Source: Botryllus schlosseri (Eukaryota). From it: a DNA stretch of 64,000 nucleotides. The position numbers and the translations under genes were made by a program. Below are positions 60,556 through 60,888 of this stretch, piece by piece. Location of the stretch: positions 496,001 through 560,000 of the forward strand of contig CM119371.1 in NCBI GenBank assembly GCA_051294905.1, given 5' to 3'. The notes under the pieces were generated by a model that saw nothing but the letters and a program-made list of their open reading frames with translations, did no database searches and was not told the origin of the DNA. Each line of letters starts with the position of its first letter. Positions within the stretch are counted from its first letter, which is position 1.

Positions 60556-60888
60556 TCAGCATACCCAATCATTTGTCAGTGAGATAAAGTGTGTATTCAA
60601 GAATTTCGATGATGCATCTGTATACAATGAGATAGTATGAACATCACTTTTCATAGCTGCGATCGCTACAATGCACATAACACCATTCCAGTCCACACCG
60701 TATCCCAGAATCGCGTTGGTTAATGATGTGAAATCACATTTTTCGATGCTCTCAACAATTTGATCTGATATGTATAAATCAACGATATCGTGAACCAACT
60801 GTTCTGTTTCCCCCAAATCAGGGACAGGTAATTGGTGATGGCGAAGTAGATAATTTTCTATAATCACACGGGTATGAGTTGAGACCAT
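60556..60888 (-). CDS. Minimal Bcl-2-like protein (putative viral Bcl-2), 110 aa
   Basis: BH4-like HTRVIIENYL; BH1-like FTSLTNAILGYGVDWNGVMCIVAIA (cf. ELFxDGVNWGRIVA); BH2-like FISLTNDW (cf. WIxxxGGW); no transmembrane tail. Confidence 0.55.
   Translation of the reverse strand: MVSTHTRVIIENYLLRHHQLPVPDLGETEQLVHDIVDLYISDQIVESIEKCDFTSLTNAILGYGVDWNGVMCIVAIAAMKSDVHTISLYTDASSKFLNTHFISLTNDWVC

Follow-up and report, generated by a model that had tools for sequence, protein, structure and literature searches.

The poxvirus proteins N1, A52, B14, K7, M11L and F1L are small helical proteins of the Bcl-2 fold from which the BH motifs have been lost. Some poxvirus proteins of this fold have also lost BH3 binding and act on innate signalling, and membership of the group rests on solved structures. 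We know of no introns in the poxvirus genes, and viral Bcl-2 genes are, as far as we are aware, usually intronless. For the cellular proteins Bcl-2 and Bcl-xL, the glycine and the arginine of BH1 are important for BH3 and Bax binding. An intron that splits BH2, directly after the TGG codon of its tryptophan, is reported for almost all animal bcl-2 homologues (PMC7527217). Adintoviruses, which are animal Polintons, are reported to carry homologues of both Bcl2 and IAP (Starrett et al., 2021; PMC8502044), and the same paper describes conserved adintovirus proteins of unknown function. A full-text literature search for Bcl-2 in Maverick/Polinton elements returned nothing among the matches listed, and a search combining adintovirus with Bcl returned, apart from the adintovirus paper and its preprint, a single unrelated preprint.

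We compared with these systems a gene near the end of a 64,000-nucleotide stretch of the Botryllus schlosseri genome (C1:496001-560000, hereafter the window). Like the Bcl2 homologues of adintoviruses, it belongs to the accessory genes of Maverick/adintovirus-type elements in animals; unlike those homologues, which their authors' searches recognised (PMC8502044), it escapes Pfam and is recognisable only through a weak profile match and the structure of the gene. The poxvirus Bcl-2-fold proteins serve as a working analogy for its rewired BH1. Those proteins have solved structures, whereas the protein studied here has no reliable one, and we found no sequence link between the two, PDB fold searches giving no significant rows. 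The features of the gene and of its surroundings are the following, in window coordinates.

60565..60888, minus strand: exon 1, 108 codons (M1-W108), all-helical by prediction
60682..60699, minus strand: BH1-like motif G-V-D-W-N-G, residues 64-69, paired by hhalign with the N-W-G-R of Bcl-2 proteins
60508..60564, minus strand: inferred spliceosomal intron, 57 nt, GTATGC...TTTACAG, phase 0, right after the TGG codon of W108
60415..60507, minus strand: exon 2, 30 codons (60418-60507) followed by a TAG stop (60415-60417)
59217..59706, no strand assigned: left terminal inverted repeat, its outermost 259 bp (59217-59475) 98.8% identical to C1:570319-570576, with further repeat pieces to 59706
59763..60359, minus strand: 198-aa gene, downstream of the studied gene on the same strand
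61140..62027, plus strand: 295-aa ORF in divergent orientation, just upstream of the polymerase gene, apparently mostly of low complexity
62532..64000, plus strand: polymerase ORF, extending beyond the window end, with a PF03175 match in its continuation

The preliminary description of this DNA presented the ATG-to-TGA open reading frame of 110 codons at 60556-60888, on the minus strand, as a 110-aa protein. Its coordinates, strand, start and stop are exact, but the whole protein it is not: the frame is the exon 1 portion of a gene with two exons and about 138 codons in total, its final two codons and stop fall inside the 57-nt intron, and the product of exon 2 is missing from it. That product begins N-S-C-K-D-Y-F and continues, in the window copy, as a basic amphipathic helix. 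The intron was inferred from comparison among copies only, for which 28 copies were fetched from the genome (the N-terminal pattern is present in 27). Past the stop of the window copy, some copies read on into a conserved tail. A GT..AG stretch follows the last tryptophan codon immediately in 25 of the 27 loci examined, with a length of 57 nt in 17 loci, 58 nt in seven and 56 nt in one, and its removal restores the exon 2 frame in every case. Exon 2 then comprises 30 codons at 21 loci; one locus has 31 codons, one has 22 and two have 41, the frame of these two running on into the end of the 198-aa gene. Only within this stretch of 56-58 nt do lengths change by amounts not divisible by three, which matches the prediction for an intron. 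Two contigs that span it are unspliced, the RNA label of their source runs being a guess, and two raw-read RNA runs, contributing 7 and 49 reads, left every bin from 60348 to 61643 uncovered and gave no joints; we take none of this as evidence on expression or splicing. We conclude with high confidence that this is a two-exon gene of about 138 codons and a conserved accessory gene of Maverick/Polinton (adintovirus-like) elements, placed between the left inverted repeat and the polymerase.

By joining the end of the window to the next 20 kb, we could read the element as an intact-looking Maverick/Polinton of about 15.4 kb. Its right terminal repeat (C1:570319-570576) lies outside the window, and the 8-bp direct repeat TATAGTCT at both flanks is its target-site duplication. 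The element encodes a protein-primed polymerase (PF03175, E 5.9e-7), an A32-type packaging ATPase (Pox_A32, E 3.6e-5) and an integrase with both rve (E 1e-14) and Chromo (E 9.8e-10) matches; there is a weak hint of a capsid (Capsid_N, E 0.054), and no protease was identified among its proteins. Terminal inverted repeats with a target-site duplication, a PolB, a retroviral-type integrase and a packaging ATPase identify it as a Maverick/Polinton-type element in an animal genome, bearing out the Polinton-like viral setting that had been proposed. Apart from the studied gene, the recognisable genes of the element are uninterrupted ORFs. The first 59 kb of the window contain a single ORF of at least 150 aa (standard code), and coding density climbs sharply from about 59.7 kb.

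The neighbouring genes show features of their own. On the minus strand, a TATAAAA (60400-60413) lies right behind the exon 2 stop and some 45-50 nt ahead of the 198-aa gene's ATG, a placement that suggests separate promoters for the two same-strand genes. Weak, OB-fold-like hints are all that Pfam offers for the 198-aa protein (RuvA_N, E 0.066). Its gene has 340 candidate copies in the genome, 150 of which were scored, and many of them form -/+ pairs about 11-12 kb apart. At the pair examined (L047, C7:17297801-17307800), the sole other ORF of at least 80 aa in the first 10 kb is one of 82 aa, and the paired genes look like non-autonomous elements built from two Maverick left ends. The 295-aa ORF contains, by eye, three motifs resembling E-K-P-x-T-x-R-(K/R)-x-F in a Pro/Ser/Thr-rich middle part, followed by a helical C-terminus. 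The adintovirus paper puts 'Oncoid' genes at the position occupied here by this ORF (PMC8502044). No L-x-C-x-E motif was seen in it, and that it might encode the terminal protein is a guess.

The six-frame search of the 495.5-Mb assembly (219 contigs) returned 120 matches to the studied gene, which fall into three subfamilies by identity to the window copy: 13 rows at 92-100%, seven at 80-90% and the remainder mostly at 48-53%. A search of this genome with a member of the subfamily at about 50% identity returned no additional, more distant subfamily. An element carrying such a member keeps the order of the gene, the 198-aa neighbour (54% identity) and the polymerase. Estimated by the Nei-Gojobori method, dN/dS in exon 1 is 0.26 both within this subfamily (78 pairs) and among the relatives of the window copy (36 pairs), and it is 0.28-0.36 in exon 2. 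We regard selection on the two-exon gene as close to shown. In two copies of the subfamily at about 82% identity (L009, C11:16029767-16030693; L012, C9:2978378-2979304), the exon 2 frame continues into the last residues of the 198-aa gene (I-D-Q-L-T-R-I-L-E-L/R-Q-E), which points to an internal deletion of most of that gene.

The BH1-like motif G-V-D-W-N-G, on which the Bcl-2 proposal had been built, is present at residues 64-69. In 24 aligned copies there is no variation at D66, W67 or G69, and conservation of N68 is at least 90%. As had been described, the BH1 arginine is absent: where the canonical sequence is N-W-G-R this protein reads D-W-N-G, so that the tryptophan alone is kept, glycine is replaced by asparagine and arginine by glycine. 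The BH2 pattern W-x-x-x-G-G-W is likewise reduced, to its final tryptophan (W108), which is preceded by aspartate; the position of the first BH2 tryptophan holds leucine. The predicted secondary structure is all-helical (exon 1 has five helices, and a 158-aa copy that naturally reads through has nine), and the most hydrophobic predicted helix (W67-K80, Kyte-Doolittle mean 1.46) follows the D-W-N-G. The proposed compact Bcl-2 spacing agrees only approximately, since the BH1-like and BH2-like tryptophans stand 41 residues apart against 51 in the canonical Bcl-2 copies of the same genome. Because the 110-aa ORF is not the whole protein, the statement that a transmembrane anchor is missing also needs qualifying. 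It describes the window copy, whose tail is basic and amphipathic and has a best 18-aa Kyte-Doolittle mean of 0.06, with no C-terminal hydrophobic anchor; in the subfamily at about 50% identity the tail is hydrophobic (1.6), near the canonical Bcl-2 anchor of this genome (1.81).

Database searches placed the protein in no known family. The Bcl-2 family profile that the preliminary description had pointed to, PF00452, gave no match at E<=10 to the window copy or to any of the 24 copies, and its gathering score of 31.4 bits was not reached; at the same threshold, Pfam hmmscan named no family for the window protein, and the best unrelated Pfam match among the 24 copies had an E of 0.023. The window copy was also not among the 150 places listed by a PF00452 scan of its own genome (150 of 290 candidates scored). 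A sequence-profile search of the PDB gave no match. AlphaFold with the 24-row family alignment returned an all-helical model at a pLDDT of 50.6 and a pTM of 0.41, and the 158-aa read-through copy reached a pLDDT of 45.7. For these low-confidence models (pLDDT 45.7-50.6), Foldseek and VIA-align produced noise-level rows only, Foldseek having none at E<=0.001. The suggested structural check brings no significant fold match and, the models being too poor to judge by, neither supports nor contradicts the Bcl-2 proposal.

The search for relatives in other organisms was equally sparse. Among 5.8 billion proteins, the 110-aa ORF found three candidates, none at E<=1. A profile search of 1.84 billion representatives gave six matches at E<=0.001, one of which is a relative, the 51-aa fragment P0001 from outside this genome, at 61% identity or less to any copy here. 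P0002, P0005 and P0006 were rejected as relatives, since they are long proteins made of repeats and what matches in them is a recurring G-N-x-Y-I-A-D...R-I-R-K-V-D unit, and P0003 and P0004 were rejected for the same multi-stretch match pattern. Scans of viral and metagenome contigs with the family alignment (A1) gave 51 and 349 pattern matches, respectively, of which tblastn confirmed none.

We then compared A1 by hhalign with an alignment (A4) of 28 diverse Bcl-2 proteins, 21-76% identical to its first row, built from the canonical Bcl-2 copies of the genome and two database searches. The comparison scored 23.6 (P = E = 0.0029, probability 10.8%) over 73 collinear columns. It pairs I-I-E-N-Y-L with helix alpha1, the invariant D37 with the BH3 aspartate and D-W-N-G with N-W-G-R, and the BH4-, BH3-, BH1- and BH2-like segments follow one another in the order proposed earlier. 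When 22 copies were spliced in silico, the score was 24.6 over 117 columns, with the exon-final D-W opposite G-G-W and the first residues of exon 2 opposite those that come after BH2. None of 200 column shuffles reached the real score (mean 12.8, maximum 20.6), nor did any of 120 shuffles of six-column blocks (mean 13.3, maximum 21.0). Reversed controls scored 11.7 and 13.7 for the query and 14.8 for the template, and seventeen other proteins of these elements used as controls scored 9.0-18.0. Other hhalign settings retained the BH1 region alone (score 19.0, 26 columns). The window protein as a single sequence scored 15.7 (P 0.066), within the range of the control proteins, and against the six near-identical canonical Bcl-2 copies of the genome alone the hhalign probability was 0.6%. 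The match is not fully independent evidence, because Bcl-2 had already been proposed from the same motif.

The position of the intron, by contrast, could not be seen in the preliminary description and is an item of evidence independent of that motif. In the canonical Bcl-2 genes of this genome, an intron lies directly after the TGG of N-G-G-W. At six of ten canonical loci examined, an intron of 183-197 nt follows the last tryptophan TGG, and the last exon encodes D-G-F-V-E-F-F and the membrane anchor; at the other four, no second exon was found with the acceptor pattern used. The only intron of the studied gene lies directly after the TGG that the alignment would assign to the BH2 tryptophan. 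We estimate this to be about one in some 400 possible positions and phases.

The comparison with cellular Bcl-2 (PF00452; for example L032) can be carried further. Common to both are the order of the helical segments in the collinear hhalign match, a Trp-centred BH1-like motif ahead of a hydrophobic central helix, a single phase-0 intron after the TGG at the BH2 tryptophan position, and a short last exon that comprises the end of BH2 and a C-terminal helix. The two also differ. The studied gene encodes about 138 aa against about 194 (157 + 37) in the canonical copies, the part before BH1 being some 38 residues shorter and the BH1-BH2 interval 10 residues shorter, and its intron has 56-58 nt instead of 183-197 nt. 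Unlike cellular Bcl-2, it has no PF00452 match, reads D-W-N-G in place of N-W-G-R and is without N-G-G-W, and the window copy has its basic amphipathic tail where cellular Bcl-2 has the membrane anchor.

The canonical Bcl-2 genes are themselves numerous in this genome. The PF00452 scan scored at least 150 copies of 290 candidates, matching positions 1-99 or 1-100 of the profile at E 1e-18 to 1e-20; 149 of the 150 scored copies are without an internal stop, and the copies carry N-W-G-R and N-G-G-W. Among named proteins, a tunicate bcl-2-like protein 2 comes closest to them (51% identity). They lie mostly in +/- pairs 3-20 kb apart and, where checked, in long inverted repeats. Example loci of the canonical copies are the following.

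C4:13119113-13122442 (L032), C4:13118501-13128500 (L044), C11:316001-336000 (L042 and L043) and C11:10084001-10108000 (L051-L053): canonical Bcl-2 example loci

The 10-kb locus L044 is a near-perfect palindrome (9.8 kb at 99.4%), and a 20-kb locus has arms of 3.7 kb at 99.9% identity. Between the paired copies of three loci we found no other ORF of at least 100 aa (at least 120 aa in the third). The idea that the canonical copies ride on Mavericks was rejected for these three loci, where no ORF the size of a polymerase, integrase or capsid lies between the pairs. The canonical loci share with the 30-kb stretch around the window's element a match of 56 bp only, outside the element. Such a copy number of a death regulator on an apparent foldback or palindromic repeat seems very unusual, and it may be an assembly artefact.

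We favour, with a probability of about 0.55, the reading that a cellular gene of the bcl-2 family was captured, BH2-splitting intron included, and that the studied gene is its strongly diverged and shortened descendant, because the hallmark intron position of the family is kept. Strict membership of the Bcl-2 family is not claimed, since the Pfam match, the canonical BH1 and BH2 motifs and the anchor of the window copy are absent. The main competing explanation, a serious one that we nevertheless place somewhat short of even odds, is a lineage-specific small helical Maverick accessory protein without Bcl-2 descent, in which the D-W-N-G, the weak score and the intron after a tryptophan would be coincidence. 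It accounts readily for the lack of a family match in Pfam, PDB sequences and the ESM Atlas, for the single 51-aa fragment recovered from the two protein collections of 5.8 and 1.84 billion entries, for the low confidence of both AlphaFold models with their noise-level fold searches, and for an hhalign probability of just 10.8%, most of the score being supplied by one 26-column stretch. Coincidence would, however, also have to explain how 117 collinear columns come to outscore every one of the 320 shuffles and of the 17 natural control proteins, and why the sole intron, in phase 0, stands right after the tryptophan codon aligned with BH2 in an element whose other recognisable genes are uninterrupted.

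Two further explanations bear on the nature of the ORF. Several EF-hand clusters (0.83-0.84) are among the nearest named ESM Atlas clusters of the read-through copy, as for a calcium-binding EF-hand-like protein, although the top rows are a phage DUF at 0.86; values below 0.9 are leads only, exon 1 had no usable match in the Atlas, and nothing reached 0.9 or more. The 24 copies have no EF-hand Pfam match at E<=10, and the D-W-N-G stretch, judged by eye against the consensus, does not fit the 12-residue spacing of an EF-hand loop; we consider an EF-hand protein very improbable. Harder still to credit is a non-functional gene whose ORF is open merely because its copies are young. The copies closest to the window copy are indeed 92-100% identical, and the ORF drew no read in the two raw-read RNA runs, a blank that is not evidence on expression. 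Yet copies that differ in up to about 50% of the protein are still open, internal stops occur in only seven of the 120 rows, and 13 copies of the subfamily at about 50% identity show a pS of 0.21 against a pN of 0.06. Between subfamilies, synonymous sites are saturated at a pN of 0.28, and a relative at 61% identity or less exists outside this genome.

Under Bcl-2 descent, residues 3-61 would correspond to helices alpha1-alpha4, and D-W-N-G would replace N-W-G-R where the hydrophobic central helix begins. The alpha5-alpha6 region would be shortened, the BH2 tryptophan would be the final codon of exon 1, and exon 2 would supply the remainder of BH2 together with a C-terminal helix substituting for the membrane anchor. 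The protein could then modulate host cell death or related signalling during replication of the element, a role that we put forward tentatively. With the BH1 glycine and arginine both replaced, it may not bind BH3 helices canonically, which makes a BH3-sequestering role uncertain; by analogy, a rewired role like that of the poxviral Bcl-2-like proteins would be equally possible. An immune or apoptosis antagonist, as suggested in the preliminary description, is thus a tentative proposal. A more extended scenario, which is speculative and on balance unlikely, would have an invertebrate Maverick/adintovirus capture host bcl-2 as genomic DNA with its intron and reduce it to a minimal fold of about 138 aa. 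The BH1 Gly-Arg would have been lost and the anchor turned into a basic amphipathic helix in one sublineage, heading towards a non-BH3 function in parallel with the poxvirus antagonists, and the more than 100 copies would record the intermediates.

The two-exon structure has a practical consequence in that ORF-based annotation of Maverick accessory genes can overlook short introns and last exons. Bcl2 homologues in adintoviruses are already published, and a cryptic, shortened, intron-bearing Bcl-2 derivative would add a new form to them. If the resemblance is due to chance, the gene joins the conserved accessory genes of Mavericks whose function is unknown. If the descent from Bcl-2 is true, it would be a small viral Bcl-2 derivative with a rare gene-structure marker of cellular origin, the BH2-splitting intron, whose presence would mean that an integrating virus-like element had acquired the gene in the form of genomic DNA. 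The three subfamilies, with tails ranging from hydrophobic to basic amphipathic, would then form a natural series on the remodelling of a death regulator by a mobile element.
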